Shown one piece after another: positions 17,565-64,000 of a stretch of 64,000 nt of DNA. The notes beneath the pieces are model-generated. The model did no database searches and was not told where the DNA came from. It saw only the letters and a list, made by a program, of their open reading frames with translations. A program made the position numbers and the translations under genes. How positions within the stretch are numbered: position 1 is the first letter of the stretch; each line of letters opens with the position of its first letter. This DNA comes from an uncultured Actinomycetota bacterium (lineage in GTDB: Bacteria > Actinomycetota > Actinomycetes > Actinomycetales > Microbacteriaceae), in NCBI GenBank assembly GCA_963750955.1, contig CAVVSI010000006.1, forward strand, positions 8,548 through 72,547. Reading direction: 5' to 3'.

Positions 17565-17644
17565 TGCGGCCTCCTCGCCCCGAGCCGCATCGGTGCGGCT
17601 TTCGAGAGGGACGCTACGCGGCGGCGGGGCGCGCCTGAAGCAGG

Positions 17645-17661: not shown

Positions 17662-17664
17662 GAC

Positions 17665-18621: not shown

Positions 18622-18633
18622 CCTTTCCGACTC

Positions 18634-18669
18634 ATAAGCACTGCTTATCGAGGATCGTAGACCCGATAA
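18634..18669. promoter_or_regulatory. LysR-type T-N11-A box plus a second inverted repeat
   Basis: ATAAGCA-C-TGCTTAT is a perfect 15-bp palindrome at 18634-18648. TTATCG (18645-18650) pairs with CGATAA (18664-18669). Located between the lysR gene and the divergent demethylase gene. Confidence 0.6.
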
Positions 18670-18713
18670 CCGCAGGTACCTAGCATGGAAGCACCCGGAA
18701 CGAAGGAGTTCTC

Positions 18714-42102: not shown

Positions 42103-42175
42103 GGCGTCTCCTTCGACGGTGCGTGCGGGTGCCTCGGCCCAGTGTGCGGCGAGCGGGGTCCGGTCTGCGAGATGG

Positions 42176-42192
42176 TTCCCGTTGAACGGGAA
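42176..42192. promoter_or_regulatory. perfect 17-bp palindrome TTCCCGTT-G-AACGGGAA upstream of pobA
   Basis: Lies 74 bp upstream of start codon 42102, between the iclR stop and pobA. Confidence 0.55.
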
Positions 42193-42320
42193 ATTGCTCT
42201 CAGGTGATCGGAGGCGTTTTCGCCGAGTGCACGGGTTGCGTCCGAGCGCACGGCTTCACCCCGCCGAGAGGCCGTGCACTCGATGTGAAGCCGTGCACTC
42301 GCGCCGAAGTGGGTACCGGG

Positions 42321-44046: not shown

Positions 44047-44627
44047 TGCCCGACGACAAGCTCGATGAGCGCGTGCCCGCCAAGACCCACCTGGCCAGCC
44101 CCGGACAGACCGTCGGTCCGTTCTTCGCATTCGGCCTGAACTACCCCAAGAAGCACGAGGTCGTCTTCCCGCACAGCCCCGGCGCGATCGTGCTCGGCGG
44201 CACCGTCTTCGACGGCGCCGGCGCGCCCATCCCCGACGCGGTGGTCGAGATCTTCGGCGCCGACTCGGACGGCACGGTGCCGCGTGCGCGCGGCGCGTTC
44301 CGTCGCGACGACCACAGCTTCACCGGCTTCGGTCGCGCCGCCACGACGGACGACGGGCGCTACGAGTTCTGGACCCGCAATCCCGGGTCGGTCGGCGGCG
44401 AGGCCCCGTTCTTCGCCGCGATCGTCTTCGCCCGGGGCCTGCCCGACAAGCTGCACACGCGCATCTACCTGCCGGAGAGCACCGATCTGCTCGACGCCGA
44501 CCCGCTGCTCTCCTCGCTCACGCCCGAGGAGCGCGATAGCCTCATCGCAACGCGCACGCCCGACGGCGGACTCCACTTCGACATCCGACTGCAGGGCGAG
44601 AAGGAGACCGTGTTCCTTGTCTACTGA
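44046..44627 (+). CDS. pcaG: protocatechuate 3,4-dioxygenase alpha subunit
   Basis: ATG 44046 overlaps the pcaH stop. ...GQTVGPFFAFGL...FFAAIVFARGL.... Confidence 0.9.
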   Translation: MPDDKLDERVPAKTHLASPGQTVGPFFAFGLNYPKKHEVVFPHSPGAIVLGGTVFDGAGAPIPDAVVEIFGADSDGTVPRARGAFRRDDHSFTGFGRAATTDDGRYEFWTRNPGSVGGEAPFFAAIVFARGLPDKLHTRIYLPESTDLLDADPLLSSLTPEERDSLIATRTPDGGLHFDIRLQGEKETVFLVY

Positions 44628-45966
44628 CGGGTCCGGCATCGACGTCGGCCTGCTCTCACCGGTGACGGTCGGGTTCGACGACGCGGTGTCGGATGCCGCC
44701 TTCCTCGACGCTCTCGTCACGGTCGAGGTCGCGCTCGTCCGGGCGCGAGGAGCCCTCGGGCTCGGCCCGTCCGACGTCGTCGGCCGCGTCTCGGACTCGT
44801 TCGGCTGGACCGGCGCCGGAGCGCCGTGCCGCGGGCACGCGATCGACGCGTCGGCGCTGGCTGCGGCATCCGTCGCCGGAGGCAACCCGGTGATCCCGCT
44901 CGTGAAGCTGCTCACCGACGCGGTGGGCCCGCACGCCGAGATGCACCGCGGAGCGACGAGCCAGGACATCCTCGACACGGCGCTCATGTTCGTCGCCGCC
45001 CGCGCCGGCAGAAAGATCTCAGCGTCGCTCCGCGAGACCGCCTCGGGGCTGCGGGCGTTCGCGCGCGCGCACCGCGATGAGGTGGCGGCAGCCCGAACCC
45101 TCACTCAGCACGCGGTGCCGACGACCGTCGGGCTGCGGGCGGCGAACTGGTTGCACGGGATCCAGCGCGCGAACGCCCGGCTCGATGCCGCCGTGGGCGC
45201 ACTTCCCGCGCAGCTGGGCGGCGCGGGCGGAACGCTGGCGTCGTTCGTCGAGCTCTTCGGGGCGGATGCCGCGGCAGAGCTGCCTGCCGCCTTCGCGGCC
45301 GAGCTCGCGCTCGCCGCTCCGGACGCGCCGTGGCACACCACGCGCTGGCCGGTCACCGAGCTGGGCGACGCCCTCGTGCAGGCGGTCGATGCGGTCGGCG
45401 TGATCGCGGCGGACGTGGCGACCCTGGGCCGCACCGAGATCGGCGAGCTGGCCGAAGGCGTCGGCGGCGGATCGTCGGCGATGCCGCAGAAGCAGAACCC
45501 CGCGGCATCCGTGCTGATCCGTTCGGCCGCGCTGCGCGCACCGCAGCTCGGTGCCACGTTGCACCTCGCCTCGGCGCTCGCCGTGGACGAGCGCCCCGAC
45601 GGCGCATGGCACGCGGAGTGGCCGACGCTGCGGGAGCTGCTGCGACTCGCCCTCGGTTCGACCGGCACCGCCGCGCGGCTGGTCGCGGGGCTGAAGGTCG
45701 ACGCCGGTGCGGTCGCGCACAACCTCGCTCGCACGCACGGACTCATCGTCGCCGAGCGCCTCTCGCTCGTGCTGACGCCGCTGCTCGGAAAGGCCCGCGT
45801 CGCAGAGATCGTGGCGTCGGCGAGCACGGGGCAGGATCTCGCGTCGCGGTTGCGCGCCGAACCCGAGCTGGCACATGTCGACGTGGACGCGCTCCTGGAC
45901 CCGACGGACTACACCGGCTTGGCGGCGCGGCTCGTTGATCGGGCGACCTCGGGGGAGCCCGGATGA
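44617..45966 (+). CDS. pcaB: 3-carboxy-cis,cis-muconate cycloisomerase
   Basis: Fumarate-lyase signature GSSAMPQKQNP. TTG 44617 after AAGGAG is the only plausible in-frame start. Confidence 0.85.
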   Translation: MSTDGSGIDVGLLSPVTVGFDDAVSDAAFLDALVTVEVALVRARGALGLGPSDVVGRVSDSFGWTGAGAPCRGHAIDASALAAASVAGGNPVIPLVKLLTDAVGPHAEMHRGATSQDILDTALMFVAARAGRKISASLRETASGLRAFARAHRDEVAAARTLTQHAVPTTVGLRAANWLHGIQRANARLDAAVGALPAQLGGAGGTLASFVELFGADAAAELPAAFAAELALAAPDAPWHTTRWPVTELGDALVQAVDAVGVIAADVATLGRTEIGELAEGVGGGSSAMPQKQNPAASVLIRSAALRAPQLGATLHLASALAVDERPDGAWHAEWPTLRELLRLALGSTGTAARLVAGLKVDAGAVAHNLARTHGLIVAERLSLVLTPLLGKARVAEIVASASTGQDLASRLRAEPELAHVDVDALLDPTDYTGLAARLVDRATSGEPG

Positions 45967-46751
45967 GCGCGCCCCGCATCGCGATCACCGAGCCCGTCGG
46001 TCCGGAGGGTGCCCCGCTGCTCGTGCTCGGCCCGTCGCTCGGAACCTCGACGATCCTGTGGGACAACGCGATCCCGATCCTCGCCGAGCACTACCGCGTC
46101 GTCGCGTGGGATCTGCCGGGTCACGGCGCCTCGCCCAGCGCGGCCGAGCCGTTCACGGTCGCCGACCTCGCCGACGCCGTCGCGGAGGCCGTCCGGGGGC
46201 TGGGCGCCGACCACATCCTCTATGCCGGCGTGTCGCTCGGCGGTGCAACCGGGCTCGAGCTCGGGCTGCGGCATCCGGACCTGGTCGACGCCCTCGCGAT
46301 CCTCGCATCGGGGGCGCAGCTCGGCGACCCGGCAGCGTGGCACGAGCGCGCCGCCACGGTGCGCGCGCAGTCGACGTCGGCGCTCATCATCCCGTCCGCG
46401 CAGCGCTGGTTCGCGCCGGGTTCGGTCGAACGCGAGCCCGAGCTGTCGGGCCGCCTGCTGCACGCACTCCGCGACGCCGACGGCGAGAGCTACTCGCGGT
46501 GCTGCGAGGCGCTCGCGGCCTACGACGTGCGCAGTCGGCTCGGCGAGCTGCGGATGCCGGTGGTCGCCCTGTGGGGCGAGCACGACGCGGTGGCACCCGA
46601 GGCGAAGGCCGCGGAGATCGCCGCCGGAGTGGTGGACGGACGCGCGGAGATGATCGCCGGCGTCGCGCACCTGCCCCCGGCCGAGCGCCCGGCGGCGACC
46701 GCCGCGGCCCTGCTCGCCTTCTTCGATGGGGTCGACGGTGTTCGACGGTGA
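45963..46751 (+). CDS. pcaD: 3-oxoadipate enol-lactonase
   Basis: Alpha/beta hydrolase with GVSLGG nucleophile elbow. Start overlaps the pcaB stop. Confidence 0.85.
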   Translation: MSAPRIAITEPVGPEGAPLLVLGPSLGTSTILWDNAIPILAEHYRVVAWDLPGHGASPSAAEPFTVADLADAVAEAVRGLGADHILYAGVSLGGATGLELGLRHPDLVDALAILASGAQLGDPAAWHERAATVRAQSTSALIIPSAQRWFAPGSVEREPELSGRLLHALRDADGESYSRCCEALAAYDVRSRLGELRMPVVALWGEHDAVAPEAKAAEIAAGVVDGRAEMIAGVAHLPPAERPAATAAALLAFFDGVDGVRR

Positions 46752-46770
46752 GTGGTTCGACGGTGAGTGA
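46741..46770 (+). repeat. 15-bp tandem duplication at the pcaD/pcaC junction
   Basis: TTCGACGGTGAGTGG / TTCGACGGTGAGTGA. Each unit carries an in-frame TGA. Confidence 0.8.
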
Positions 46771-46781
46771 GGAGCACGTGC

Positions 46782-47192
46782 ATGGCTGAATCCCCCCCGC
46801 GCCCGGAGGGCGACGGCCTGAGCGACGGCGAGCGGTACGCGCAGGGCATGAGGACCCGCCGCGAAGTGCTCACCGACGCGCACGTCGACCGGGCGATCGC
46901 GAACACGACGGAGGTGACCGCGGACTTCCAGGACCTCATCACCCGATATGCGTGGGGCGACATCTGGTCGCGGCCCGGCCTGGACCGTCGGTCGCGGTCG
47001 GTCGCGGTGCTGAGCTCGCTCATCGCGCACGGCCACCACGAGGAGCTCGCGATGCACGTGCGCGCGGCGCTGCGCAACGGGCTCACCGTCGACGAGATCC
47101 GCGAGGTGATCCTGCAGTCGGCGATCTACTCGGGCGTGCCGGCGGCGAACTCGGCGTTCCGGATCGCGAACGAGGTGCTGAGCGAGTCGTGA
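46782..47192 (+). CDS. pcaC: 4-carboxymuconolactone decarboxylase
   Basis: ATG 46782 after GAGGAG. ...YAWGDIWSRPGLDRRSRS...HGHHEEL... (CMD family). Confidence 0.85.
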   Translation: MAESPPRPEGDGLSDGERYAQGMRTRREVLTDAHVDRAIANTTEVTADFQDLITRYAWGDIWSRPGLDRRSRSVAVLSSLIAHGHHEELAMHVRAALRNGLTVDEIREVILQSAIYSGVPAANSAFRIANEVLSES

Positions 47193-47214
47193 GCTGCGAC
47201 CCTAGGCTGGCGCC

Positions 47215-48210
47215 GTGAGCAGCACCCCCGCATCCGCCCTCGATGACCGCGTGACGCTGCGGTTCCTCGCCACGCCTGCCGACACGGCGGCGGGCGGGCG
47301 CTCCGTCGCCGCCGGCAGCGTCATGGAGTGGATCGACAAGGCCGGCTACGCGTGCGCGGTGGGCTGGGCGGGCGCCTACTGCGTCACCGCGTACGTCGGC
47401 AACGTGCGGCACCGCCGGCCGATCCCACCCGGCAGCCTGATCGAGGTGCGGGCTCGCATCGTGCACACCGGCACGACGAGCATGCACGTCGTGGTCACGG
47501 TCTCATCCGCCGAGGTCAGCACCCGCGCCTACACGCCCGCGACCACGTGCGTGCTGATCTTCGTGGCGAAGGATGCCGACGGTCGCACGACGCCCGTGCC
47601 CGCGTGGACTCCGCGGACACGCTCGGATCGCAAGCTCGCCGACGCGGCCCTCGAGCGCATCGAGACCCGCGCCCGGATCAAGCACCTCATGCTCGACGAG
47701 GAATACACCGAGGCATCCGCCGCTCCGCGGACGACTCTGCGGTTCCTCGCGCCGACGGGCGTGGTGAACTTCGGAGGCAAGGCGCACGGAGGCACGGTGA
47801 TGCGGTGGATCGACGAAGCCGCGTACGCGTGTGCTGTCGGCTGGGTCGGCGCGGAGCCGCTGGCCGACCACGCGATCGGGGTGTACTCGGGCGGCATCCA
47901 CTTTCTGGCGCCGGTCCGGATCGGCGAGATCGTCGAGGTGCACGCCCGCATCGTCCTGACCGGCCCGCACAGCATGCACGTCAGCACCCGGGTCTCGACC
48001 GCCGACCCGCGCACCCCCGAGCAGCTGACGCTGACGACCCAGTGCCTCAGCGTGTTCGTGGTGCCGGACGACAGCGGTGTGGCGCTGCCGGTGCCGCAGT
48101 GGGAGCCTGTCCTCGCCGAGGACGAGCGCCTGCACCGGCACGTGCGCGAGATCGTCGCCCTGCGCGAGACCATCGTGCCGATCGCGGCATCGCTGACGCT
48201 CGAGCCGTAG
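47215..48210 (+). CDS. acyl-CoA thioesterase with tandem hotdog domains
   Basis: Two repeats of ...G(G/S)V(M)(E/R)WID(K/E)A(G/A)YACAVGW...IVHTG/IVLTGPHSMHV. Confidence 0.75.
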   Translation: MSSTPASALDDRVTLRFLATPADTAAGGRSVAAGSVMEWIDKAGYACAVGWAGAYCVTAYVGNVRHRRPIPPGSLIEVRARIVHTGTTSMHVVVTVSSAEVSTRAYTPATTCVLIFVAKDADGRTTPVPAWTPRTRSDRKLADAALERIETRARIKHLMLDEEYTEASAAPRTTLRFLAPTGVVNFGGKAHGGTVMRWIDEAAYACAVGWVGAEPLADHAIGVYSGGIHFLAPVRIGEIVEVHARIVLTGPHSMHVSTRVSTADPRTPEQLTLTTQCLSVFVVPDDSGVALPVPQWEPVLAEDERLHRHVREIVALRETIVPIAASLTLEP

Positions 48211-48228
48211 GCGTCTGCCGGTCACGCG

Positions 48229-48304
48229 GTCAAACCGCCGGGACGGATGCGCTTCTCCGGCGTGCGCAGCGCTCGGAAGGGGCGAAATCTCCCGAGTGTT
48301 TGAC
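48229..48304. repeat. 76-bp hairpin element, family 2, copy Y
   Basis: GTCAAACCGCCGGGA ... TCCCGAGTGTTTGAC. Shares GCGAAATCTCCCGA..GTTTGAC with the complement of copy X. Confidence 0.5.
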
Positions 48305-48348
48305 GGCGGATCGCCCTGACCAGCGCGCGCGGTCGCTTGCGTCTGGCG

Positions 48349-48401
48349 CGCACAGCGCCGGTTTGGTAGACTGTGCGTATGGCGAATTACTGTGCGCACA
48401 G
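48349..48401. promoter_or_regulatory. CTGTGCG / CGCACAG half-site cluster upstream of pcaI
   Basis: CGCACAG at 48349-48355, CTGTGCG at 48371-48377, and the perfect 12-bp palindrome CTGTGCGCACAG at 48390-48401, 22 bp before the start codon. Confidence 0.45.
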
Positions 48402-48422
48402 CGAACATCGGAGGCCTCAACC

Positions 48423-49226
48423 GTGATCGACAAGACCGTGCCCGACACCGCGGCGGCCGTCGCGGGTATCGCCGACGGCTCGACCGTGATGATGGGCGGC
48501 TTCGGGCGCGCCGGCCAGCCCGTCGAGCTGATCGACGCGATCATCGCGCAGGGCGCGACAGACCTCACGATCGTCGCCAACAACGCCGGCAACGGCGACA
48601 CCGGTCTCGCCGCGCTCCTGGCCGCGGGCCGCGTGCGCAAGGTCATCTGCTCGTTTCCGCGCCAGCACGACTCCTGGGTGTTCGACCGGCTCTACCGGGC
48701 GGGCGAGATCGAGCTCGAGATCGTGCCGCAGGGCAACCTCGCCGAGCGGATCCGCGCGGCGGGGGCCGGCATCGGAGCGTTCTTCTCGCCGACCGGCGTG
48801 GGCACCGAGCTCGCCGCGGGCAAGGAGGCACGCACGATCGATGGCCGCGACTACGTGCTGGAGTATCCGATCCGCGCCGACGTCGCCCTGATCAGCGCGC
48901 TCAAGGGCGACCGCTGGGGCAACCTCGTGTACCGCGAGACCGCGCGCAACTTCGGGCCGATCATGGCGTCGGCAGCGACCACCACGATCGTGCAGGTCGA
49001 TGAGATCGTGCCGCTCGGCTCGCTCGACCCCGAGGCGATCGTCACCCCCGGCATCTTCGTCGACCGCGTGGTGGCGGTCGGCGAGCGCATCTGGCTCCAG
49101 GACGGCGTCTTCGTCGGGGGTGTCGATCTCGAGGGTCGGCCGCTCGCCGACACTTCGACAGGCTCAGGGAGTTCGACAGGCTCAGGGAGTCCGGCAGGCT
49201 CAGGCACCAAGGAGGTCGACCAGTGA
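48423..49226 (+). CDS. pcaI: 3-oxoadipate:succinyl-CoA transferase subunit A with a Gly/Ser-repeat C-terminal extension
   Basis: GTG 48423 after GGAGG. ...GGFGRAGQPVELIDA.... The tail is encoded by 3 x 18-bp repeats. Confidence 0.85.
   Translation: MIDKTVPDTAAAVAGIADGSTVMMGGFGRAGQPVELIDAIIAQGATDLTIVANNAGNGDTGLAALLAAGRVRKVICSFPRQHDSWVFDRLYRAGEIELEIVPQGNLAERIRAAGAGIGAFFSPTGVGTELAAGKEARTIDGRDYVLEYPIRADVALISALKGDRWGNLVYRETARNFGPIMASAATTTIVQVDEIVPLGSLDPEAIVTPGIFVDRVVAVGERIWLQDGVFVGGVDLEGRPLADTSTGSGSSTGSGSPAGSGTKEVDQ
49154..49207 (+). repeat. 3 x 18-bp tandem repeat inside the pcaI 3' end
   Basis: TTCGACAGGCTCAGGGAG x2, then TCCGGCAGGCTCAGGCAC. Confidence 0.85.
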
Positions 49227-49873
49227 GCACCCGCATCAGCCGCGACGAACTCGCCCAGCGCATCGCCGCCGACATCCGCGAGGGGTCGTACGTGAACCTC
49301 GGCATCGGCGCGCCCACGCTCGTGGCCAACTTCCTGCCCGACGACCAGGAGATCATCCTCCACACCGAGAACGGCCTGCTCGGCATGGGCCAGGCGCCGG
49401 ATGCGGCGCACGTCGACCCGGATCTCATCAACGCCGGCAAGCAGGCCGTGACCGCGCTGCCCGGCGCCGCGTACTTCCACCACGCCGACTCGTTCGCGAT
49501 GATGCGCGGCGGACACCTGGATGTCTGCGTGCTCGGCGCGTTCCAGGTATCGCAGACCGGTGATCTGGCCAACTGGTCGACCGGCGCGCCCGGCGCGATC
49601 CCGGCGGTGGGCGGGGCCATGGATCTCGCGATCGGCGCCAAGGCCGTCTACGTGATGACCGATCTGCTCACCAAGACGGGGGATTCCAAGCTCGTCGCCG
49701 CGTGCACCTACCCGCTCACCGGGGTCGGCTGCGTGACCCGCGTCTACACCGACCACGCGGTCTTCGACGTGACTCCCGACGGCTTCGCCGTGCGCGAAGC
49801 GTTCGGCGAGAACACCGTCGCGTCGCTGGCCGCGCTGACCGGCTTGACACTGGCTTCCGCAGAGGGGAACTGA
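49223..49873 (+). CDS. pcaJ: 3-oxoadipate:succinyl-CoA transferase subunit B
   Basis: GTGA overlap with pcaI. ...LHTENGLLGMG... (active-site Glu motif). Confidence 0.9.
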   Translation: MSTRISRDELAQRIAADIREGSYVNLGIGAPTLVANFLPDDQEIILHTENGLLGMGQAPDAAHVDPDLINAGKQAVTALPGAAYFHHADSFAMMRGGHLDVCVLGAFQVSQTGDLANWSTGAPGAIPAVGGAMDLAIGAKAVYVMTDLLTKTGDSKLVAACTYPLTGVGCVTRVYTDHAVFDVTPDGFAVREAFGENTVASLAALTGLTLASAEGN

Positions 49874-49874
49874 C

Positions 49875-51044
49875 ATGACCGCATCCTTCGTCTACGACGC
49901 CGTCCGCACACCTTTCGGCCGGGCCGGCGGCGCGCTGTCGGGCGTCCGGCCCGACGACCTCGCCGCGATCGTGATGCGAGCCAGCGTCGAGCGTACGGGC
50001 ATCGATCCCGCCCGCATCGAGGACGTGATCTTCGGAGACGCGAACCAGGCCGGCGAAGACAACCGCAACGTCGCGCGCTTCGGCGCGCTGCTCGCGGGGT
50101 TCCCCACGACGGTTCCCGGCGCGACCGTGAACCGGCTGTGCGGCTCGTCGGTCGAGGCCGTGATCCAGGGCTCGCGCGCGATCGAGGCGGGGGATGCCGA
50201 CATCATCCTCGCCGGCGGCGTCGAGTCGATGAGCCGCGCCCCGTTCGTCGTCGAGAAGTCCTCCAAGCCCTGGCCGGCGGTCGGAAACCAGACGATGTGG
50301 AACACGTCGATCGGGTGGCGGATGACGAATCCCGCGCTGCCCCACGAGTGGACGATCTCGAACGGCCAATCGGCCGAGAAGCTGGCGCAGATCTACGGGA
50401 TCTCGCGCGACGCCCAGGACGCCTTCGCCCTGCGCAGCCACGCGCTCGCCGCTCGCGCCTGGGAGGACGGAGCCTACGCCGGCGAGATCGTCCAGGTCGA
50501 CGGTCACGAGCTCGCGATGGACGAGGGCATCCGCGTCGACACGACGCTCGAGAAGCTCGGCGGCTTGCGCGCCCTGTTCGCGAAGGACGGCACCGTGACG
50601 GCGGGCAACTCGTCGTCGATCAACGACGGCGCCTCGGCGATCCTGCTGGCCGGCGAAGGCGTGCTCGAGCGCGATCCGCTCGCGCGCATCGCGGGCCGTG
50701 CGGCTTTCGGCAACGACCCTGATGTGTTCGGCGTCGCCCCCGTCGAGGCCGCCAACCGCGCGCTCGCCCGTGCCGGCCGGACGTGGGCCGACGTGGATCT
50801 CGTCGAGCTCAACGAAGCGTTCGCGTCGCAGAGTCTTGCCTGCCTGCAGCTGTGGCCTGAGCTCGACCCCGAGAAGGTCAATATCCATGGCGGTGCCATC
50901 GCCATCGGGCACCCGCTCGGAGCCTCCGGCGGACGCATCATCGGCCACGCGGCGCACGAGCTGGCCCGCCGCGGCGGCGGAGTCGCGGTCGCGGCGCTCT
51001 GCATCGGCGTGGGCCAGGGGCTCGCGGTCGTCCTGGAGCGGTGA
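49875..51044 (+). CDS. pcaF: 3-oxoadipyl-CoA thiolase
   Basis: VNRLCGSS, GGAIAIGHPLGASG, CIGVGQG. Confidence 0.9.
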   Translation: MTASFVYDAVRTPFGRAGGALSGVRPDDLAAIVMRASVERTGIDPARIEDVIFGDANQAGEDNRNVARFGALLAGFPTTVPGATVNRLCGSSVEAVIQGSRAIEAGDADIILAGGVESMSRAPFVVEKSSKPWPAVGNQTMWNTSIGWRMTNPALPHEWTISNGQSAEKLAQIYGISRDAQDAFALRSHALAARAWEDGAYAGEIVQVDGHELAMDEGIRVDTTLEKLGGLRALFAKDGTVTAGNSSSINDGASAILLAGEGVLERDPLARIAGRAAFGNDPDVFGVAPVEAANRALARAGRTWADVDLVELNEAFASQSLACLQLWPELDPEKVNIHGGAIAIGHPLGASGGRIIGHAAHELARRGGGVAVAALCIGVGQGLAVVLER

Positions 51045-51135: not shown

Positions 51136-51161
51136 AGCGGCGGGGTTACGGCGGTGACCTC

Positions 51162-51933
51162 GTGAGCGACCGCGCCGACGGCGACTTCGTGCAGTCGCTC
51201 GCGCGCGGGCTCGCGGTGATCCGCGCGTTCGACGCCGAGCACCCGGAGCTCACCCTCAGCGACGTCGCCCGGCGCGCCGGAATCACACGCGCCGCGGCCC
51301 GCCGGTTCCTGCTCACCCTCGGATCGCTCGGCTACGTCCGCGCCGACGACCGGTCCTTCTCCCTCACCCCGCGGGTCCTCGAGCTCGGCTTCAGCTACCT
51401 GTCGTCCCTTTCGCTGCCCGAGATCGTCCAACCGCACCTCGAAGCGCTTTCGCGCGAAGTCGACGAGAGCGTCTCGGCCGCAGTGCTGGACGGGCCGGAC
51501 ATCGTCTACATCGCCCGCGTCCCCACCCGCCGCATCATGAGCGTCCGCATCACGATCGGCACGCGGTTCCCGGCGTTCGCGACGAGCATGGGCCGCGTCC
51601 TGCTGGCCGGTCTGCCGGATGCCGCCGTGGATGCCGCGCTCGCGGCATCCGACATCGCCCGCCTGACCGACCGCACGGTGACGGACCCCGACAAGCTGCG
51701 CGCCGAGCTGGATGCGCGTGCGCGCGCAGGGCTGGTCTGTCGTCGACGGGGAGCTCGAGCCCGGCCTGCGCTCCATCGCGGCGCCGCTGCACGCGCGCGA
51801 CGGGCGCGTCGTCGCGGCGGTCAACGTGTCGACCAGCGCGACGCGCGACTCCGTGGAGCATCTGCTCGACGCGTATCGCCCGCCGCTGCTGCGGACGGCC
51901 GGCGCGATCGACGCCGAGCTGCGCCTCGTCTGA
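51162..51933 (+). pseudogene. pcaR: IclR-family regulator (PcaR-like), 1-nt frame shift
   Basis: GTG 51162. ...FVQSLARGLAVIRAF...LTLSDVARRAGITRAAARRFLLTL.... The frame is lost after ...KLRAELDA. The C-terminus VRAQGWSVVDGELEPGLRSIAAPL... is in ORF 51712..51933. They join if one C near 51715-51718 is removed. Confidence 0.8.
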
Positions 51934-52086: not shown

Positions 52087-53388
52087 ATGCTCCTCGAAAG
52101 AGACCTCATCCAGTCCGTCGGCTTCCGCAATGTGCGCGAGAACGGAGAGATCACCGGCTTCCAGCTGCGGGTGCGCATGCCGTCCTATCGCGGGATGGCG
52201 GCGTCCCTCATCGACGGCATCGCAGTCAAGGTCGGCGATCTCGTCGACGTCGCGGCGGACGTGCCGCTGTGGACGCTCCAGGGAAACACCTACACCCTGC
52301 AGCAGCTCTGGGACGGCGACGATGTCCGCTGGCCGCTGGAGGAAGCCGCGATCGTCACGGTGCCGCACCCGGGCGGTCTGCCGGACGGGGTGCACGAAGT
52401 GTCGATCGAGCTCCGACTGCGCATGTCGTACATCCCGGTCGAGCACCAGCCGTCGACCTACAACGTCACCAAGCACGTCACCCTGTCTCCCGAAGCCGAT
52501 GGCGCTCCCTTCAAGTACGGCGTTTCCCTCTACAGCTTCATGACCGACTACGGCACCGTGCTCGACCTCGAGACCGCGATGGCCGGCATCGCCGACATCG
52601 GGGCGACCGGCATCGAGATCCTCGGCGAGGGGCACATCCCGGGCTATCCGAACCCCTCGCAAGAGTGGGTGGACGACTGGTTCCGCCTGCTGGAGAAGTA
52701 CGGCCTCGAGCCCACGAACTACGGCTCCTGGATCGACACCCGCCTGCACTCCAGCGGTCCGAACGGGCGCGACATGTCCGTCGACGAGGGTGCCGCGGCG
52801 CTCCAGCGCGACCTGCGGCTGGCCAAGCGGCTCGGCTTCCGGTTCGTCCGGCCGAAGATCGGCGTCATCACGAGCGACCTGGTGCCGCATCCGATCTGGA
52901 CCGAGGTCGTCGAAGCGTCCCTGCCGCTGGCGGAGGAGCTCGATGTGATCATCTGCCCCGAGATCCACTCGCCCACCCCGATCAAGCACGAGGTCGTCGA
53001 CGAGTACATCGAGTTCATCAAGCGCACCGGAACCAAGCACTTCGGCATCCTCATCGACACCGGCATCTTCCAGGACCGCCCGATCCCGCTGCGACCCGGC
53101 GAACTGCCCGGCCGTCGCCCGGCGTTCCTGGACGGCATCGGCGTCGACCCGGCCGACTTCGCCGACGTCGCCGAGCATGTCGTGTTCGTCCAGGCGAAGT
53201 TCCACGACATCGACGAGAACCTCGAAGACCAGCAGATCCCGTGGGAGCCCGTGCTGCGCGCCATCCGCGACGCCGGCTACACCGGCTACCTCTCCAGCGA
53301 GTACGAAGGCGAACGCGAACCCTGGCGCTCGATCGAGCAGGTCCGCCGCCACCACTCGCTCATGCGCCAGGTCGCCGACGGGCTCTGA
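52087..53388 (+). CDS. fused small-subunit/TIM-barrel protein resembling C-glycoside deglycosidase (DgpB-type domain plus DgpC-type xylose-isomerase-like domain), copy 1
   Basis: 433 aa from ATG 52087. N-terminal ~130 aa ...GFQLRVRMPSYRGMAASLIDGIAVKVGD...ELRLRMSYIPV. Then the TIM barrel ...GATGIEILGEGH..., ...FVQAKFHDID..., ...GYTGYLSSEYEG. Confidence 0.65.
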   Translation: MLLERDLIQSVGFRNVRENGEITGFQLRVRMPSYRGMAASLIDGIAVKVGDLVDVAADVPLWTLQGNTYTLQQLWDGDDVRWPLEEAAIVTVPHPGGLPDGVHEVSIELRLRMSYIPVEHQPSTYNVTKHVTLSPEADGAPFKYGVSLYSFMTDYGTVLDLETAMAGIADIGATGIEILGEGHIPGYPNPSQEWVDDWFRLLEKYGLEPTNYGSWIDTRLHSSGPNGRDMSVDEGAAALQRDLRLAKRLGFRFVRPKIGVITSDLVPHPIWTEVVEASLPLAEELDVIICPEIHSPTPIKHEVVDEYIEFIKRTGTKHFGILIDTGIFQDRPIPLRPGELPGRRPAFLDGIGVDPADFADVAEHVVFVQAKFHDIDENLEDQQIPWEPVLRAIRDAGYTGYLSSEYEGEREPWRSIEQVRRHHSLMRQVADGL

Positions 53389-53426
53389 GCCGCGGCATCC
53401 GACAACGACGACGAAGGAATCACACC

Positions 53427-54904
53427 ATGCCCAACGGACTCATCCAGGACGACAGCCTGCGCGTCCACCCCGAGGGTCTCGCGCTCTCGCTCACCCTGCC
53501 CTGGTACCGCAGCCTGTGGCTGTCGTCGGTCTCCTCGCTCCAGCTCACGGTCGACGGGATCGAGATCCCGGCCGAGGACCTGGCGTTCGAGTTGAAGGGC
53601 GTGCGGTACTCGCTCGACGAGCTGCCGCAGCAGAGCGAGGTGCTCTGGTACCTGCAGGAGCACCCGCTGCTGATCGCCGCTCGCGTGACACGCCGATCGA
53701 GCTCGGTGAGACCCACGAGGTGCGCCTGGTCGGCCAGCTGCGCCTGCCGTACATGCAGATCGCTCCGGGTGAGGACGGCGGGCCCGGCATGTACGTGCCC
53801 AACTTCGTGAACCAGACCCTGACGCTGACTGCGACCGATCGCGACGCGCCGGCGCCGGCACTGGTGACGGATGTGGCGGCTCCGCCGCCGGCGACGGATG
53901 CCGACCCCTTCAAGCTCGGCCTCACGCTCTACTCCGCCAGCGCCGAGTTCCGCGCCGGCTGGTACGACTTCGACAGCCTGCTCGCGCGGGTGGCGGAGCT
54001 CGGGATCGGCCCCGGCATCGAGATCGTGGCATCGCAGGCGCTGCCGACCTACCCGCACGTGTCGGAGGAGTTCGTCCGCAACTGGCGCGCCGCGTTCGAC
54101 AAGTACGGCTTCGACGAGAGCTCGTTCGGCGCCAACCTCGACATGGGTCGCCGTCGCGACCGCGACATGACCGACGACGAGGAGTTCGAGTTCAGCGAGC
54201 TCATGTTCCAGGGAGCCAAGAAGCTCGGCTTCCCGCTCGTGCGGATCCAGAGCGCGAAGCCCGGGCTGCTGCGGCGACTGCTCCCGGTCGCCGAGAAGCT
54301 GAACCTGAAGCTGGCTTACGAGATCCACGCTCCCATGGGTCCGAACGCGCCCGCGGTGCTCAAGGTTCGCGAGACGTACGCCGAGCTCGACTCGCCGCTG
54401 CTCGGATTCGTCGCGGACTTCTCGTCCACGATGCACAGCATGTCGCCGACCCTGCTGCGCGCGGTGCAGCGCGCCGGACTCGACGACGAGGCCCTCGCGA
54501 AGCTGCAGGCGATCTGGGCGACGGATGCCTCGATGCAGGAGCGCCAGCAGGAGTTCATCGGCTACCTCAAGAGCCGCGACTTCGACCCCGGGCGCCTGGG
54601 ATCCTTCGCGCACCTCGCGTTCAACATGCACGGGCACGTCGCTCCGCAGGAGTGGGCCGACATCATGCCGCAGATCCTGCACGTCCACGCGAAGTTCTAC
54701 GACATCGACGAGACCGGCCAGGAGCCGGCGATCGACTATCCCGAACTGGTGCGGGTCTTCGTCGAGGGCGGCTACCGCGGCTACTGGTCCAGCGAGTGGG
54801 AGGGGCACGCGTTCGCCGAACTCGGCGAGGTCGACCCTCTCATGCTCGTGCGCAAGCAGCATGACCTCATCCGGCGCTCGATGCGGGAGCTGCAGCCGGC
54901 ATGA
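53427..54904 (+). pseudogene. second fused C-glycoside-deglycosidase-like gene, -1 frame break
   Basis: ATG 53427 after GAAGGAA. ...LTLPWYRSLWLSSVSSLQLTVDGIEI...LLIAAR, then a frame change at ~53681-53688 to DTPIELGETHEVRLVGQLRLPYMQI...HVHAKFYDID...GYRGYWSSEWEG. Needs +1 nt (or -2) to restore. Confidence 0.65.
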
Positions 54905-55828
54905 CGGACGCAGAGACGGCGGCTCCGCCGGACTTCCGGCGCATGCCCGTCGCGGATGCCATCCGCTGGCTCGCCGAGAACGGTGAGCCCGCCGACCCGC
55001 GCACCGACATCGACACGGCGTCGCTGCGGCGCCGGTTCCCGCGCCTCGCGTCCGTCGAGACCGCCGACATCCGTATCGACGGACCGCGCGGCAGGCTCGT
55101 CCCGGCGAGGCTGTATCGGGATGCCGCGGCGCCGTCATCCGGTCGCGCCCTCATCTGGGTGCACGGCGGCGCGTTCATCGGCGGTCACCTCGACATGCCC
55201 GAGTCGAACTGGGTCGCGCTCGAGCTGGCTGCGCGGGGCATTCCCGTGCTCGCCGTGGACTACGTGAAGTGCCTGGGCGACGTGCACTTCCCCGCGCCGT
55301 CGGACGACGTCCTGGCGGCGTGGCGGCACGCGCTCGAACACGCGGCCGAGTTGTTCGGCGTCGGTCCCGACGCCGTCGTCCTCGGCGGCGCGAGCGCCGG
55401 TGGAAACCTCACGGCCGGTGCCGTGGCGCGGCTGCGGGATGCCGGCGAGCCGGTGCCCGCCGGGCTCGTGCTCGTGTATCCCTCGGTCCACCCCAACGGT
55501 CCGGACGCCTCGGCAGAGGTGGACACCACTTCGCCGCACGGGCAGCTCGCCATGAACTTCGCAGGCACCGAGGACGGGCTGCGCAACCCTTACGCCTTCG
55601 CCGCGCTCGGCCCCGCGGCGGGCTTCCCCCGACCCTGGTCGTGGTGTGCGAGCACGACGAACTTCGCCCTTCCGGGGAGGCCTTCGCCGCTCTGCTCGAC
55701 CGGGCGGTGTCGAGGTCACGCTCCACCTGGAGCCGGGCGCCGACCACGGCCACATCAACGAGCCGTCCGATCCGACCGCTCTGCCGACGATCGAGGCGAT
55801 CGCCGAATGGATCGGCGCGCACGCGTGA
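54901..55828 (+). pseudogene. alpha/beta-hydrolase-fold-3 (HSL-type) esterase, two 1-nt deletions
   Basis: WVHGGAFIGG (HGG oxyanion motif), GGASAGGNL (GxSxG). Frame breaks at the C5 run 55626-55630 (would read GFPPTLVVVCEHDELRPSGEAF) and at GG 55706-55707 (..LLDRAGVEVTLHLEPGADHGH..). Ends at TGA 55826-55828. Confidence 0.75.
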
Positions 55829-57309
55829 GCGCAGCCGGAACGTTCACCAACCCGATCCTGCCGGGCGACCGGCCCGACCCGGCCCTCATCAAAGTCGGCG
55901 ACGAGTACTGGATGACCTACTCGTCCTTCGAGGCGGCCCCCGGACTGCTGCTGTACCGCTCCACCGACCTCGTGAACTGGACGTACGAGACCGCCGCCCT
56001 GCCGAGCCCGGTCGGCAACACCTTCGCGGTCGACATCGCCGAGCACGAGGGACGCTTCTTCATCTACATCCCGTTCATCCCCACGCCCTGGTCGACGCTG
56101 ACGGATGCGTCCATCTTCGTCATCCACGCGCCCTCGATGAGCGGCCCGTGGTCGGAGCCGATCGATCTCGGCATCCGCGGGGTGATCGATCCCGGCCACG
56201 TCGTCGGCGAGGACGGGCGACGGTACCTGTTCGTCAGCGGCGTGCGCCGCATCCGTCTGACCGACGACGGCTTGTCGACGATCGGCGAGCTGGAGCACGT
56301 GTACGACGGCTGGCGCTACCCCGACGACTGGGTCACCGAGGCGTACGCGCTCGAGGGGCCGAAGCTGTTCCGCAAGGACGGCTGGTTCTATCTCGTGAGC
56401 GCGGTCGGCGGCACCGCCGGCCCGCCGACCGGGCACATGGTGATCGTGGCGCGCTCGCGGTCGGTGCACGGTCCGTGGGAGAACCACCCGCGCAACCCGA
56501 TCGCCAGAACGACGGACGCCGCGGAACGCTGGTGGTCACGCGGCCATGCGACGCTCGTCCCCGGACCCGGGTCCGATACCAGTGACGATGACTGGTGGAT
56601 GGTCTCGCACGGGTACGAGAACGGCTACCGCACCCTCGGTCGGCAGATCCTGCTGGAGCCGATCCGGTGGACGGAGGACGGCTGGCCCGAGACCGTGATC
56701 GCCGATCCGGGCGGGCAGATCGCCGCACCGCGCGGCGCCGTGGCGCAGCATCCGTCATCGGAGTTCGTGGACGATTTCTCGACGCTGCTCCTCGGCGAGC
56801 GGTGGGCGTTCCACGCGCCAGGTCCGGGCGAAGCCGCTCGCATCCGCATCGGTGACGGGCTGGTGATGGCAGGCAAGGGCACGTCGCCCTCCGACACATC
56901 CCCGCTCGCGATCCTGACCGGCGACCATTCCTACGAGATCGAGGTCGAGGTCGAGCTCGCGTCGGCGGGCACCGAGGCGGGGCTGCTGCTCTTCTTCAAC
57001 AACCGGCTGTACTGCGGCATGGGCATCGACGGGGAACGGATGCTGAGCTATTCGGGCGGCATCCGCACGCACTGGCGCGAGCCGGCACCGGCGACCGACC
57101 GGATCACGCTGCGCATCCGCAACGAGGAGCACATCGTGACCGGCTGGTACCGCGTGCCCGGCGGTGAGTGGACCCGTCACGCGATCCGCTACGAGACCTC
57201 CGGCTATCACGCGAACACGACCGGCGACCTGCTCAGCCTGCGCCCGGCGCTCTACGCGGCCGGCGAAGGCAGCGCGCGGTTCCGCGACTTCCGCTACCGC
57301 CCGCTCTGA
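55825..57309 (+). CDS. GH43 glycoside hydrolase (beta-xylosidase/alpha-L-arabinofuranosidase type) with a C-terminal beta-sandwich
   Basis: GTG 55825 overlaps the esterase stop. FTNPILPGDRPDPALIKVGDEYWMTYSSFE.... Confidence 0.8.
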   Translation: MSAAGTFTNPILPGDRPDPALIKVGDEYWMTYSSFEAAPGLLLYRSTDLVNWTYETAALPSPVGNTFAVDIAEHEGRFFIYIPFIPTPWSTLTDASIFVIHAPSMSGPWSEPIDLGIRGVIDPGHVVGEDGRRYLFVSGVRRIRLTDDGLSTIGELEHVYDGWRYPDDWVTEAYALEGPKLFRKDGWFYLVSAVGGTAGPPTGHMVIVARSRSVHGPWENHPRNPIARTTDAAERWWSRGHATLVPGPGSDTSDDDWWMVSHGYENGYRTLGRQILLEPIRWTEDGWPETVIADPGGQIAAPRGAVAQHPSSEFVDDFSTLLLGERWAFHAPGPGEAARIRIGDGLVMAGKGTSPSDTSPLAILTGDHSYEIEVEVELASAGTEAGLLLFFNNRLYCGMGIDGERMLSYSGGIRTHWREPAPATDRITLRIRNEEHIVTGWYRVPGGEWTRHAIRYETSGYHANTTGDLLSLRPALYAAGEGSARFRDFRYRPL

Positions 57310-57406: not shown

Positions 57407-59557
57407 TCAGGTGACCCGCAGCTCCACCGACTGCGTCCGCTCGAGCGAGCCGCCGATGTGGAAGCGGAAGACACCCGGCTCGACGACGAACGCCGGGCCT
57501 GCGGCATCCGTCTTCCAGAACCCGAGCTGCTCGCGCCCGATCGTGAACTCGAAGGTCTCCGTCCGGCCGGCCGCGATGCTGCGCCGCTCGAACCCGATGA
57601 GTCGCCGCACCGGCGGGGCGACACTGGCGACCAGATCGTGGACGTACAGCTGGACCACCTCGTCACCATCGCGTTCCGCGGTGTTCGTCACGTCGACGCC
57701 GATCGTCACACCCGTGCCGAGCTGTGCCGCACTCACCTCAGCGGCTGAGATCCGCGGCGGCCCGTGTGCGAAGGTGGCATATCCGGAGCCGTGTCCGAAC
57801 GCGAACTGCGGGCCGAGGTCGAGGTCGAGGTACTTCGAGGTGTACTTCTCCTGCACGTTGTCGGGACCGTGCAGGCCGATGTCAGCGGACTCCAGCTCGA
57901 GCGATCCCCGCACCGTCGCGGGGCGGCCGGTGTTCTCGTGCGCGTAGTAGATCGGCACCTGGCCCGCTGAGCGCGGGAACGACATCGGCAGGCGACCCGC
58001 GGGCTCGCGCTCGCCGAGCAGCAGGTCGACGATGGCCGCGGGAGCCTCGGTCCCGCCGTGCCAGACCTCGAGCACCGACGGCGCCTGGTCGATCCAGTCG
58101 GCCACGACGAGCGGGCGTCCGTTCGCGAGGACGACGACGAACGGGATGCCGCACCCCGCGATCGCGCGGATGAGCTGGGCCTGCCGCCCGGGCAGCCGGA
58201 GGTCGCTCCGCGACGCCGCCTCGCCGGAGAGGGCAGACGGCTCGCCCACGCAGACCACCACCACATCGCAGTCGAGGGCAGCGGTGGCCGCCGCGTCGAT
58301 GTCGTCCGTCGCGGAGCCGAAGAAGGAGACTCCGGGGATGACGTGGACCTCGGCGCGCGGCAGCCGCGCACGCAGCTCGTCGGAAAGCGATCCCGAGGGG
58401 GTTGCGAAGGACTGCGTCCAGGCGCCCAGGTGATCCGTCGACTCGGCGTAGGGCCCGGTCAGCAGGATCCGGCTGGGCGATCGGAGCGGCAGCGTGCCGT
58501 CGTTGCGCAGCAGGACGGACGCGCGCGCCGCGGCGATGCGCACCTGTTCGCGCGCGCCCGCGCTCGATAGGGTCAGCTCGGCCTCCGCGTCCACATACGG
58601 GTCGTCGAACAGCCCGAGCGCCTCTTTCAGCCGGAGCACTCGTGCCACCGCGTCGTCGACGCGAGCGGGATCGAGCGAACCGGGCGCGGCCTCGGAGGGG
58701 GCGCCTCCCATCTCGACGTCCAGTCCCGCCGCGAACGACGCCTGAACGGCGGCGGCGAGGTTCTCCGCCACTCCGTGCGGGAGCAGGTTGCGCACGCCGT
58801 CCGCATCGCCGACGACGACGCCGCCGAACCCCCACTCTGTCTTGAGCACGTCGGTCATGAGCGCGCGATTGGCGTGCATCGGCACCCCTGCGACGGTGTT
58901 GAAAGACGCCATGACCGACGCGACACCGGCATCCACGGCGGCGCGGAACGGTTCCAGGTAGACGTTGCGCAGGCGATGCTCCGACACATCGACGGCGTTG
59001 TAGTCGCGTCCGCCCTCGGGTTGCCCATAGGCGACGAAGTGCTTCGCGGTCGCCGCTATCGCGTCATGTGCAGAGAGGTCCTCACCCTGATATCCGCGCA
59101 CCATCGCCGCGCCCAGAACGGAGGTGAGGTGCACATCCTCGCCGAAGCCCTCGACCGCCCGCCCCCACCGCGGATCGCGGGAGATGTCGACCATGGGCGA
59201 GAAGGTCCAGGTGACGCCCGCCGACCGCGCTTCGAGAGCGGCGAGCCGAGCGAGGTCCTCGACCACGGCCGGGTCGAAGGTCGCGGCCATCGCGAGCGGG
59301 ACCGGTGCGATCGTGCGGTGCCCGTGGATCACGTCGAGCCCGATGAGGATCGGGATGCCGAGCCGGGTCTCCTCGACGGCTGCACGCTGCAGGTCGTTCG
59401 CCGCCGCGGCGGAGCGCGGCCAGAACATCGACCCGATGCCGGCACGGACGAGGGATGCCGCATCCTCGAGCCGCGGACGGAAGACGATCTGCAGCTGGCC
59501 GATCTTCTCCTGCCACGTCATCTGCTGCAGGAGCGCCTGCACGCGGGGCGTGGTCAT
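57407..59557 (-). CDS. GH3 beta-glucosidase (BglX-like)
   Basis: 716 aa. ...GLDVIHGH..., ...SPMVDISRDPRWGR..., ...KHFVAYG... plus a C-terminal fibronectin-like domain. Confidence 0.85.
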   Translation of the reverse strand: MTTPRVQALLQQMTWQEKIGQLQIVFRPRLEDAASLVRAGIGSMFWPRSAAAANDLQRAAVEETRLGIPILIGLDVIHGHRTIAPVPLAMAATFDPAVVEDLARLAALEARSAGVTWTFSPMVDISRDPRWGRAVEGFGEDVHLTSVLGAAMVRGYQGEDLSAHDAIAATAKHFVAYGQPEGGRDYNAVDVSEHRLRNVYLEPFRAAVDAGVASVMASFNTVAGVPMHANRALMTDVLKTEWGFGGVVVGDADGVRNLLPHGVAENLAAAVQASFAAGLDVEMGGAPSEAAPGSLDPARVDDAVARVLRLKEALGLFDDPYVDAEAELTLSSAGAREQVRIAAARASVLLRNDGTLPLRSPSRILLTGPYAESTDHLGAWTQSFATPSGSLSDELRARLPRAEVHVIPGVSFFGSATDDIDAAATAALDCDVVVVCVGEPSALSGEAASRSDLRLPGRQAQLIRAIAGCGIPFVVVLANGRPLVVADWIDQAPSVLEVWHGGTEAPAAIVDLLLGEREPAGRLPMSFPRSAGQVPIYYAHENTGRPATVRGSLELESADIGLHGPDNVQEKYTSKYLDLDLGPQFAFGHGSGYATFAHGPPRISAAEVSAAQLGTGVTIGVDVTNTAERDGDEVVQLYVHDLVASVAPPVRRLIGFERRSIAAGRTETFEFTIGREQLGFWKTDAAGPAFVVEPGVFRFHIGGSLERTQSVELRVT

Positions 59558-59663: not shown

Positions 59664-60966
59664 CTACTCGCCCCAGGCCGCGTCCATCTCCTCGAGCACC
59701 TGGTCGACCGTCTTCTGACCGGTCAGCAGGCCCTGGACGCCGATGCCGAGAGTGTCGTAGACGGCCGGGTTCGGCCACGTCGCGTTGGGCAGGCCGGCGA
59801 ACGCGCCGGTCTCCAGCAGCCCGGCGATCGGCTCGTATACGGCGTTGACGTTGTCCGGCGTCGCTCCCGAGATCGGCACGAAGCCGGAGAGGTCGGCGAA
59901 CTGCTGAGCCTGCTCGGGCTCGGCGAGCCAGTCGAGGAAGGTCTGCGCGGAAGCCTTCACGTCATCCTCGGACGAAGCGTTGATGGCCCACGCGTAGTTG
60001 GCCGAGGCCAGCGTGTACGGCTCCTGGCCATCCGCAGGCGGGAACGCCTGGACGGTGAGGTCCAGACCGGTGCCGGCTCCGATCGAGATCGCGGCGGAAC
60101 CCGGGACGGCCGCGGTGAGCGACGTCGGCCGAACCGATGTTCTGGGTGATCGTGTCGAACGTGCCGCCCGCGACGCCGTCCTGGAAGCAGCCGCCCTCGT
60201 TGAGCGCGATGATGTCGTTGAGCGTGTCCTCCCAGCCGCTGCCGACGAAGGTCACATCGCCTGCCGCGCGCTGCTCGTTCCAGTCGGGGTCCGCCTGGTA
60301 GACGCGGGTCGCCGAGACGAGCATGGAGAACAGGCCCGTGTTGAACGGGATCGCGCCGGCGAGAACGGTGAAGGTCTTGCCGCCGTCGCGCGCCGCGGTG
60401 CACGCCTCGAGCAGCTCGTCGAACGTCTCGGGGTAGGCCTCGACGCCCACCTCTTCGCCGCCGGCGCCGTTGTAGATCAGGCCGACGGGCGCGAGCGCGG
60501 TCGGCTGACCGTAGATCTCACCGTCCACCTCGTAGAGGTTCTCGGTGCCTTCGGGGATGACGCCCGCCGACGCCTCGTCGAGGGGCTCCAGGAAGCCCGC
60601 CTCGGCGAGGGTCACGACCGAGATGGCCTGGCCGGTGCCCGGGGCGAGGACCATCATGTCCGCGGCGTTCCCGGCCTGCAGCTGGGTGGTGACCTGCGTG
60701 TTGTAGGCGTCGGAGGGGTAGGGGATCATCTCGATCTCCACGCCCGTCTCTTCGGTGTACGCCTCTGCCATCTGCGCGTAGTAGTCGTCGGCGTCGTTCG
60801 CCTGCGCGACCATGATCGAGAAGCCGACGCCTTCGGCGGGCGCGTCGGTGTCGCCGCCGCCGCCGTCATCGGTCGAGCCGGAGCAGCCGGCGAGGATCAG
60901 GGCACCGGCCACCGGCGCTGCGAGGAGCAGCCACCGGCGGTTGCGGTGAGTGGAGAGCTGTGACAT
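59664..60966 (-). pseudogene. sugar ABC transporter substrate-binding lipoprotein, 1-nt frame shift
   Basis: Signal ...LLLAAPVAGALILAGC-SGS. Body in ORF 59962..60966 up to ...TQNIGSADV. Continues as LTAAVPGSAAISIGAGTGLDLTVQAF...VKASAQTFLDWL... in the frame of ORF 59664..59960. They join if C 60120 (top strand) is removed. Confidence 0.75.
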
Positions 60967-63980: not shown

Positions 63981-64000
63981 CCACGGTCCGCCGGCGGCAC

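Follow-up and report, generated by a model that had tools for sequence, protein, structure and literature searches.

How should one read two neighbouring genes that each seem to join both subunits of a C-glycoside deglycosidase (CGD) in a single polypeptide, when one of the two is broken in frame and no oxidase partner is encoded beside them? The question is raised by a stretch of 64,000 nucleotides (the window) of contig CAVVSI010000006.1 (GenBank assembly GCA_963750955.1, positions 8,548 to 72,547) from an uncultured Actinomycetota bacterium. G+C content is about 70% across the window, and the source genome is Microbacterium-like (Microbacteriaceae). We refer to the two genes as gene 1 (CGD1f) and gene 2 (CGD2f). 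A previous reading of the letters alone (the sequence-only reading) took them for an unprecedented fusion, duplicated in tandem and with no oxidase nearby. According to our results the best explanation, to which we give a probability of about 0.85, is that the pair is a conserved tandem of single-chain CGDs in a Microbacterium-type plant C-glycoside locus, that the oxidase lies just off the window and that the frame break is artefactual. What looks odd about the locus is probably owed to where the window ends and to errors of the assembly.

Architecture, active site and conservation of the gene pair

Gene 1 runs on the forward strand from 52087 to 53388 (ATG to stop) and encodes 433 amino acids: a β domain (residues ~3–120), a linker (~121–141) and an α TIM barrel (~142–433). 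Residues 3–115 match PF19906 CGDB (DUF6379) with an E value of 3.6e-34 (117 bits; cut-off 27.6), and residues 168–414 match the xylose-isomerase-like TIM barrel PF01261 (E 3.3e-18). Among all PDB sequences the closest is chain A of 8QRZ/8UN2, which aligns without gaps, residues 1–432 on 1–432, at 84% identity (E 3e-257). The same structures are the top Foldseek match (TM 0.85–0.86) of an AlphaFold2 model of gene 1 with a mean pLDDT of 79. Further PDB and Foldseek matches are the separate α and β chains of DfgAB, Deinococcus aerius CGD, DgpBC and AgCarB2-C2; in the case of EuCGD the α part matches 7BVS_A with an E value of 2.8e-64 and the β part gives 8.7e-19. Homologues of each gene were taken as the best 120 matches in a collection of 5.8 billion proteins. 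For gene 1 all of them are fused, carry both Pfam domains, are 405–453 amino acids long (mostly 433) and are 84–100% identical.

Gene 2 follows on the same strand at 53427–54904 and encodes 491–492 amino acids once its frame is repaired. Its β domain (~53427–53790) is joined by a Pro/Ala-rich linker to the α barrel (~53912–54892), and the repaired protein matches PF19906 (E 1.3e-13) and PF01261 (E 1.2e-07), both over the gathering score. The α part is 60% identical to the α subunit of AgCGD2 (7DNM_A, E 8e-131) and the N-terminal part matches AgCarC2 (7DNM_B, E 2.5e-30). Its best matches are again all fused and carry both domains (477–496 amino acids, 83–97% identical). A scan of both proteins against NCBIfam gave zero family matches. 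From these matches each gene is predicted to encode a small substrate-capping β subunit of the DgpB/CarC type, followed by a linker and then the N-terminus of a Mn2+-binding α TIM barrel of the DgpC/CarB type. The sequence-only reading had come to the same description: the peptide strings that it quoted are all present in the translations, both N-terminal domains match the profile of the small deglycosidase subunit at a level well outside chance, each gene resembles solved subunits over both parts, and the two proteins, being 26% identical, are the strongly diverged paralogues that it saw in them.

What does not hold is the claim that the fusion is without precedent. The entry 8QRZ/8UN2, released on 2025-04-23 under the title 'Microbacterium testaceum C-glucosyl deglycosidase (CGD), wild type', is a single chain of 433–435 amino acids, and NCBI or UniRef entries for many orthologues of both genes already bear the name 'C-glycoside deglycosidase beta subunit domain-containing protein'. 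Among the best 150 matches in a library of representatives at 50% identity, at least 13 distinct clusters (420–500 amino acids) match gene 1 from a point within the first 26 residues of gene 1, therefore the fused forms are diverse. The fusion is thus not novel. Both genes are unremarkable orthologues within an enzyme type that is known, widely annotated and represented by a solved structure. In the literature searched, CGDs are described only as α-β heteromers (PMC8563793, PMC12141560), and neither the M. testaceum enzyme nor any other fused CGD is the subject of a paper found there; the premise of the sequence-only reading, that CGDs consist of two polypeptides, is reasonable but out of date. 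Homologues of gene 1 in Novosphingobium, Ramlibacter and Clostridia (L062–L085) are unfused, 40–62% identical and encoded α then β like dfgA-dfgB. A locus table had suggested fused homologues in Novosphingobium and Clostridia, which were ruled out by analysis of the open reading frames (ORFs). Two metagenome loci (L129, 9647–10914; L145, 11529–12796) encode β then α as separate, out-of-frame genes with 53–60% identity and plausibly represent the pre-fusion state. Only this order could yield a fused protein by mere loss of a stop codon.

The active site was examined in an alignment of 170 homologues, using AgCGD2 numbering. In AgCGD2, Mn2+ is bound by Glu147, Asp179, His269, Lys271 and Glu305, while His149 is the base, helped by Glu307, in a β-elimination-like C–C cleavage of the 3-keto-C-glycoside (PMC8563793). 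E147, H149, D179, K271, E305 and E307 are kept in both genes and in every orthologue. Gene 2 has all seven residues (E299, H301, D331, H421, K423, E457 and E459) and keeps the AgCGD2 pocket residues Tyr17, Phe242, Asn248 and Met249. Gene 1 has six (E292, H294, D324, K371, E405 and E407), with Gln369 in place of His269. The base and its partner, H294/E407 in gene 1 and H301/E459 in gene 2, are invariant in all aligned homologues. The metal ligands that the sequence-only reading proposed to check are complete in gene 2 (all five) and reduced to four of five in gene 1, which has the glutamine of the solved M. testaceum CGD.

This replacement is part of a larger change. Alignment column counts show that the metal-site strand of gene 1 reads F-V-Q-A-K-F-H (residues 367–373; 53185–53205, forward strand), while other CGD α subunits read H-V-H-A-K-F-Y. 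Phe367 stands for His267, Gln369 for His269 and His373 for Tyr273, and the three co-vary: the triple change is found in all 52 fused orthologues, in 9 of 9 unfused proteobacterial α subunits and in 8QRZ, while clostridial homologues retain His at the metal site. The alignment indicates that the triple change in gene 1 is a character of its clade and not a sign of decay.

The tandem itself is conserved. With each species represented by a single genome, a scan yielded 80 loci of relatives. In 60 loci of Microbacteriaceae type the sequence downstream was long enough to judge: a gene 2 orthologue lies downstream of gene 1 in 54 of them, in 53 cases within 120 nucleotides, and gene 1 stands alone in six. 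In one M. testaceum assembly (L002, GCA_020781835.1) the two are parted by a GDSL lipase gene. Intact ORFs with β and α in one frame were recovered for 52 gene 1 and 51 gene 2 orthologues. The two enzymes do not appear to form an obligate heteromer, because gene 1 occurs alone or separated from gene 2.

Further paralogues occur in M. lacus (L086, CP084996.1). Besides CarC-CarB, the segment 11608–17248 there has a second α-then-β pair (341 and 138 amino acids), ~55% identical to the α part of gene 2, and a third CGDB-containing ORF of 472 amino acids lies beside ThuA, ROK and Gfo/Idh/MocA genes. M. lacus-type genomes have up to five CGD paralogues.

The frame break in gene 2

Tblastn with intact orthologues places the change of frame in gene 2 at ~53684. 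Residues 1–86 are read in frame 3 (53427–53684) and residues 86–491 in frame 2 (53684–54901); left unrepaired, the first ORF, from the ATG at 53427, stops at 53810. DNA and protein alignments identify two extra bases at 53680–53690 (forward strand), where the window reads CGCGTGACACGCCG and three relatives (L001, L002 and L005) read CGC--GAGGCGCCG. The closest gene 2 orthologue (P0241, 97% identical) reads ...LLIAAREAPIRLGETHEV... over the break site. The sequence-only reading had noticed the break at ~53685 and offered two causes, a heteromer in decay or an assembly error. The break is real in the deposited letters, and the second cause is the better one.

Several observations speak against decay. 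Identity to orthologues is 81–91% on either side of the break, the third-position G+C (GC3) signal carries on in the new frame directly after it, and the ratio of nonsynonymous to synonymous substitution rates (dN/dS) of repaired gene 2 is 0.13–0.16 against three intact orthologues, compared with 0.09–0.19 in pairs of intact ones. In related contigs of 'MFD'-labelled metagenome-assembled genomes, which we take to be long-read assemblies prone to indels, gene 1 is fragmented likewise. Isolate genomes are free of such fragmentation except for Naasia aerilata (L051), in which ~80% of gene 1 is matched and no more. Since flanking identity, GC3 signal, dN/dS and the fragmentation in 'MFD' contigs agree, gene 2 does not appear to be decaying. 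The picture of a decaying heteromer also does not suit two proteins that each have their own β and α parts, one of which occurs alone elsewhere.

Gene 2 is not the only gene affected. Between 51.7 and 60.1 kb there are at least five frame breaks in 4 of the 18 genes of the 42–64 kb region (gene 2, the IclR regulator, the esterase twice and the solute-binding protein), and none of these genes is broken in L005, a contig with the same gene order. The pca genes and the GH43, GH3 and GH106 genes showed no frame breaks when their frames were guided by L005 proteins. Note that frames were judged in this way throughout and that blastn indel counts against L005 were discarded, as DNA identity is merely 76–88%. 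It is quite probable that the break in gene 2 is an assembly artefact, the consensus of an assembly prone to indels being wrong at this point; a genuine recent mutation has a small share of the probability.

Two places further upstream look similar. At 40920–42255 (reverse strand) a pobA-like FAD monooxygenase is spread over two ORFs, which cover profile positions 200–348 and 1–128. At 36758–40121 (forward strand) an ORF of 806 amino acids joins three parts of a 2-oxoacid dehydrogenase of the branched-chain keto-acid type (E1α, E1β and the lipoyl domain of E2), and the E2 catalytic domain is left on a separate fragment of 120 amino acids. The split pobA and the merged and fragmented dehydrogenase genes are probably further indel artefacts.

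The oxidase and the neighbouring genes

According to the sequence-only reading the pair has no oxidase partner nearby. Within the window this agrees with the searches: tblastn at an E value of 1e-5 detected no GMC oxidase in the 64 kb, and the sole Gfo/Idh/MocA gene seen, in a Pfam survey of 29 selected ORFs between 323 and 42255, is ~45 kb upstream (6127–7389, forward strand), where it adjoins a peptide/nickel-type ATP-binding cassette (ABC) transporter (SBP_bac_5, permease, ATPase) and has no evident tie to the deglycosidase pair. For the locus as a whole the claim is not supported, as relatives do have the oxidase. Of 56 related loci, 23 have a CarA-type GMC oxidase no more than 10 kb away (median 6.7 kb), and it lies ~14–15 kb downstream in relatives that share the gene order of the window.

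Two arrangements can be distinguished. In Microbacterium sp. cf046, whose gene 1 is 94% identical, the order is pca-IclR-CGD1f-CGD2f-LysR-SBP-permeases-SnoaL-AP_endonuc_2-GMC oxidase-CGDB-CarB (SBP, solute-binding protein). Orthologues of the AP_endonuc_2(264), SnoaL and permease genes of this block were not found in the window by tblastn. The window has the second arrangement, as does the JGI contig L005, where the genes from pcaH to the glycoside hydrolase (GH) gene GH106 stand in the same order and are all intact. Two relatives, M. lacus CP084996.1 and Microbacterium sp. RU33B, show how this order goes on: GH3(-)-SBP(-)-GH106(-)-permease-permease-LysR(-)-AP_endonuc_2-GMC oxidase-CGDB-CarB-second alpha-second beta, and the GMC gene starts 14.9 kb (M. 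lacus) or ~14.1 kb (RU33B) after the stop of gene 2. A single locus of 21.5 kb (L109) combines CGD2f-esterase-GH43-GH3-SBP-permeases-AP_endonuc_2-GMC-CarC-CarB, and its right-hand half recurs in four others (L089, L094, L095 and L101). These loci came from metagenomes scanned with the GMC oxidase of M. lacus and are independent evidence of synteny; the L005 contig was not among the matches. From the stop of gene 2 the window extends for another 9.1 kb and breaks off within GH106. Judged by synteny, the oxidase most likely starts near position 68,200, ~4 kb past the right end of the window, in a permease-permease-LysR-AP_endonuc_2-GMC oxidase-CarC-CarB block.

The flanks are those that the sequence-only reading had described. 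They were read by tblastn with L001 and L005 proteins, together with Pfam searches of those orthologues. Upstream of the pair are pobA, pcaHGBDC, pcaIJF and two IclR regulators. The protocatechuate/β-ketoadipate genes pcaH, G, B, D, C, a 4HBT thioesterase, pcaI, J and F (43177–51044, forward strand) are 81–95% identical to L001/L005 proteins and all in single frames. Between them and gene 1 is a PcaR-like IclR-family regulator (51159–51933, forward strand; HTH_IclR and IclR_C on the orthologues), which the L001 and L005 orthologues match in two frames with a break at ~51710. Downstream, the start of an esterase of the BD-FAE/Abhydrolase_3 type (54901–55830, forward strand) overlaps the stop of gene 2 (54901–54904); its L005 orthologue has 309 amino acids (PF20434/PF07859) and matches in three frames, with breaks at ~55629 and ~55700. 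It is followed on the same strand by a GH43 glycosidase (55840–57309; L005 orthologue 486 amino acids, PF04616, 83% identity, single frame). The next three genes lie on the reverse strand: a GH3 glycosidase (57413–59557; L005 orthologue 711 amino acids, PF00933/PF01915/PF14310), a sugar ABC-transporter SBP (59673–60966) with a break at ~60110 on comparison with relatives' orthologues, and GH106 of the α-L-rhamnosidase family (61125–64000), which is cut by the window end so that ~320 nucleotides of its 5' end are missing (orthologues in L005, L086 and L087 have 1061–1064 amino acids, PF17132). In relatives the SBP gene is opposite in direction to the two permease genes leading on to the oxidase.

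Immediately upstream of the pair, the window has the pobA/pca cluster, as do 26 of 61 related loci. A funnel to β-ketoadipate is therefore plausible, yet it is no fixed component of the system. The connection with glycosidases and the protocatechuate pathway that the sequence-only reading drew is real in this lineage.

A survey of the left part of the window by Pfam (29 selected ORFs between 323 and 42255) shows a second block that looks like aromatic catabolism at 8991–20064. It holds a 2-hydroxyacid dehydrogenase, a protein of the glyoxalase/extradiol-dioxygenase fold, PrpF, PIG-L, two GCV_T (folate-dependent demethylase-like) genes, a cytochrome P450 and a LysR regulator.

Proposed function and comparison with known systems

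Decorations with acyl, pentosyl, glucosyl and rhamnosyl groups are common on flavone C-glycosides. In the proposed pathway the ABC transporter would import the glycosides, and the esterase, GH43, GH3 and GH106 may strip such decorations first. From what is known of the family, a CarA-type FAD/GMC oxidase would then oxidise C3 of the glucose of the plant C-glucoside. The 3-keto-C-glucoside is expected to dock at the β/α interface, between the β cap and the α barrel, where the metal would polarise the 3-keto group and His294 (gene 1) or His301 (gene 2) would take H-2''. A β-elimination-like break of the C–C bond would release the aglycone and 1,5-anhydro-D-erythro-hex-1-en-3-ulose (2-hydroxy-3-keto-glucal), and the adjoining pobA/pca genes could use up ring-cleavage products. 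The two enzymes may divide the substrates between them, gene 2 acting on C8-glucosides of the orientin and vitexin type and gene 1 on C6-linked or xanthone glucosides. We put this forward tentatively, with chances somewhat short of even, because the nearest characterised neighbours are AgCGD2 for gene 2, and DfgAB and the M. testaceum CGD for gene 1.

Several points weigh against the explanation preferred here. The oxidase is outside the 64 kb, and its presence downstream is deduced from relatives at 90–94% protein identity. The break at 53684 is outside any homopolymer and in a variable loop, so that a genuine mutation is possible. Gene 1 is without the metal ligand His269, and alanine mutants of this residue are nearly inactive in PuCGD and MiCGD (PMC8563793). 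The C6/C8 assignment is drawn from nearest-neighbour similarity and few pocket residues, and we found no assay data for fused enzymes in the literature searched.

Three other explanations have to be set against a conserved tandem of single-chain CGDs. As CGDs cleave 3-keto-O-glucosides too (PMC10628242), mixed O/C activity of the window enzymes is possible by analogy. A stronger version, in which the fused enzymes act chiefly on 3-keto-O-glycosides or other 3-keto-glycosides and not on C-glycosides, would fit an O-glycosidase-rich locus with its esterase, GH43, GH3 and GH106 genes and the altered metal-site strand of the gene 1 clade, and PuCGE is known to cleave 3-keto-O- and C-glucosides alike (PMC10628242). 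We regard it as improbable: the O-specific eliminase AtOGE has neither β subunit nor lid (PMC10628242), whereas both window proteins have a full β domain and retain Tyr17, which contacts the aglycone, Asn248 is retained in gene 2, and the depositors call the gene 1 orthologue a C-glucosyl deglycosidase.

A similarly low chance is left for the possibility that the break is genuine and gene 2 is a recent pseudogene, or yields a truncated β fragment and an internally started α protein, with only gene 1 and the canonical CarBC active. A two-nucleotide insertion accompanied by substitutions in non-repetitive sequence is what such a mutation might look like, and the absence of gene 2 from six related loci indicates that it is dispensable; yet neighbouring conserved genes are broken too, dN/dS is not raised, the GC3-phase coding signal resumes right after the break, and a truncated β part would drop strands that line the aglycone pocket (PMC8563793). 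Very improbable is a novel pair of fused deglycosidases that is orphaned or independent of an oxidase, perhaps an obligate heteromer of paralogues. The lack of an oxidase inside 64 kb and a literature that, as far as searched, describes α-β heteromers only would agree with it, but a fused orthologue has been solved, syntenic relatives have the oxidase, and gene 1 is found without gene 2 or apart from it.

The conserved tandem of single-chain CGDs has little weight as a discovery. It is useful as annotation, since it identifies the contig as a Microbacterium-type plant C-glycoside utilisation locus, and it illustrates two traps of window-based reading: a partner gene just past the edge, and an indel-rich assembly that mimics pseudogenes and gene fusions. 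For CGD enzymologists the His-to-Gln variant of the metal site in the gene 1 clade is a minor point of interest. We consider it unlikely, though conceivable, that in this clade (fused in Microbacteriaceae, unfused in Sphingomonadales and Ramlibacter) the rebuilt metal strand gives a metal geometry, metal preference or substrate range unlike that of the DgpC/CarB enzymes probed by mutagenesis. Separately, no published assay of a fused enzyme of the gene 2 type was found in the literature searched. If the first point is true and the work behind 8QRZ deals with neither, the pair would be a natural test of how CGDs tune metal site and regiospecificity.

Among known systems the M. testaceum CGD (8QRZ crystal, 8UN2 cryo-EM) is the orthologue of gene 1 and agrees with it in the β-linker-α layout of one chain and in the F-x-Q-A-K-F-H metal-site strand. 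A gene 2 orthologue likewise stands beside the CGD gene in genomes of M. testaceum. The divergence from gene 1 is at species level only; L002 differs by the GDSL lipase gene between the two and by other downstream neighbours. After 8QRZ/8UN2 the nearest solved relative of gene 1 is EuCGD (DfgA-DfgB of Eubacterium cellulosolvens, 7BVS/7DRE; C6-glucosides; PMC8563793). The two are alike in having a short-form α without a long lid, but EuCGD is encoded by separate genes, α then β, assembles as α4β4 and keeps His269 where gene 1 has Gln. The nearest solved relative of gene 2 is the C8-specific AgCGD2 (AgCarB2-AgCarC2 of Arthrobacter globiformis, 7DNM/7DNN; orientin; PMC8563793). AgCGD2 is an α-β heterodimer of two polypeptides, whereas gene 2 joins both by a Pro/Ala-rich linker of ~45 residues and has Ser for Pro241 and Gln for Arg123. 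Finally, CarA-CarB-CarC of Microbacterium (MiCGD/MtCGD; PMC8563793, PMC10646112) come from the same genus and share with the window pair the logic of a GMC 3-oxidase followed by a CGD. CarB and CarC are separate subunits, ~33–35% identical to the α part of gene 2, and lie outside the window; in relatives the fused pair is 2.6–15 kb from carA-carC-carB.

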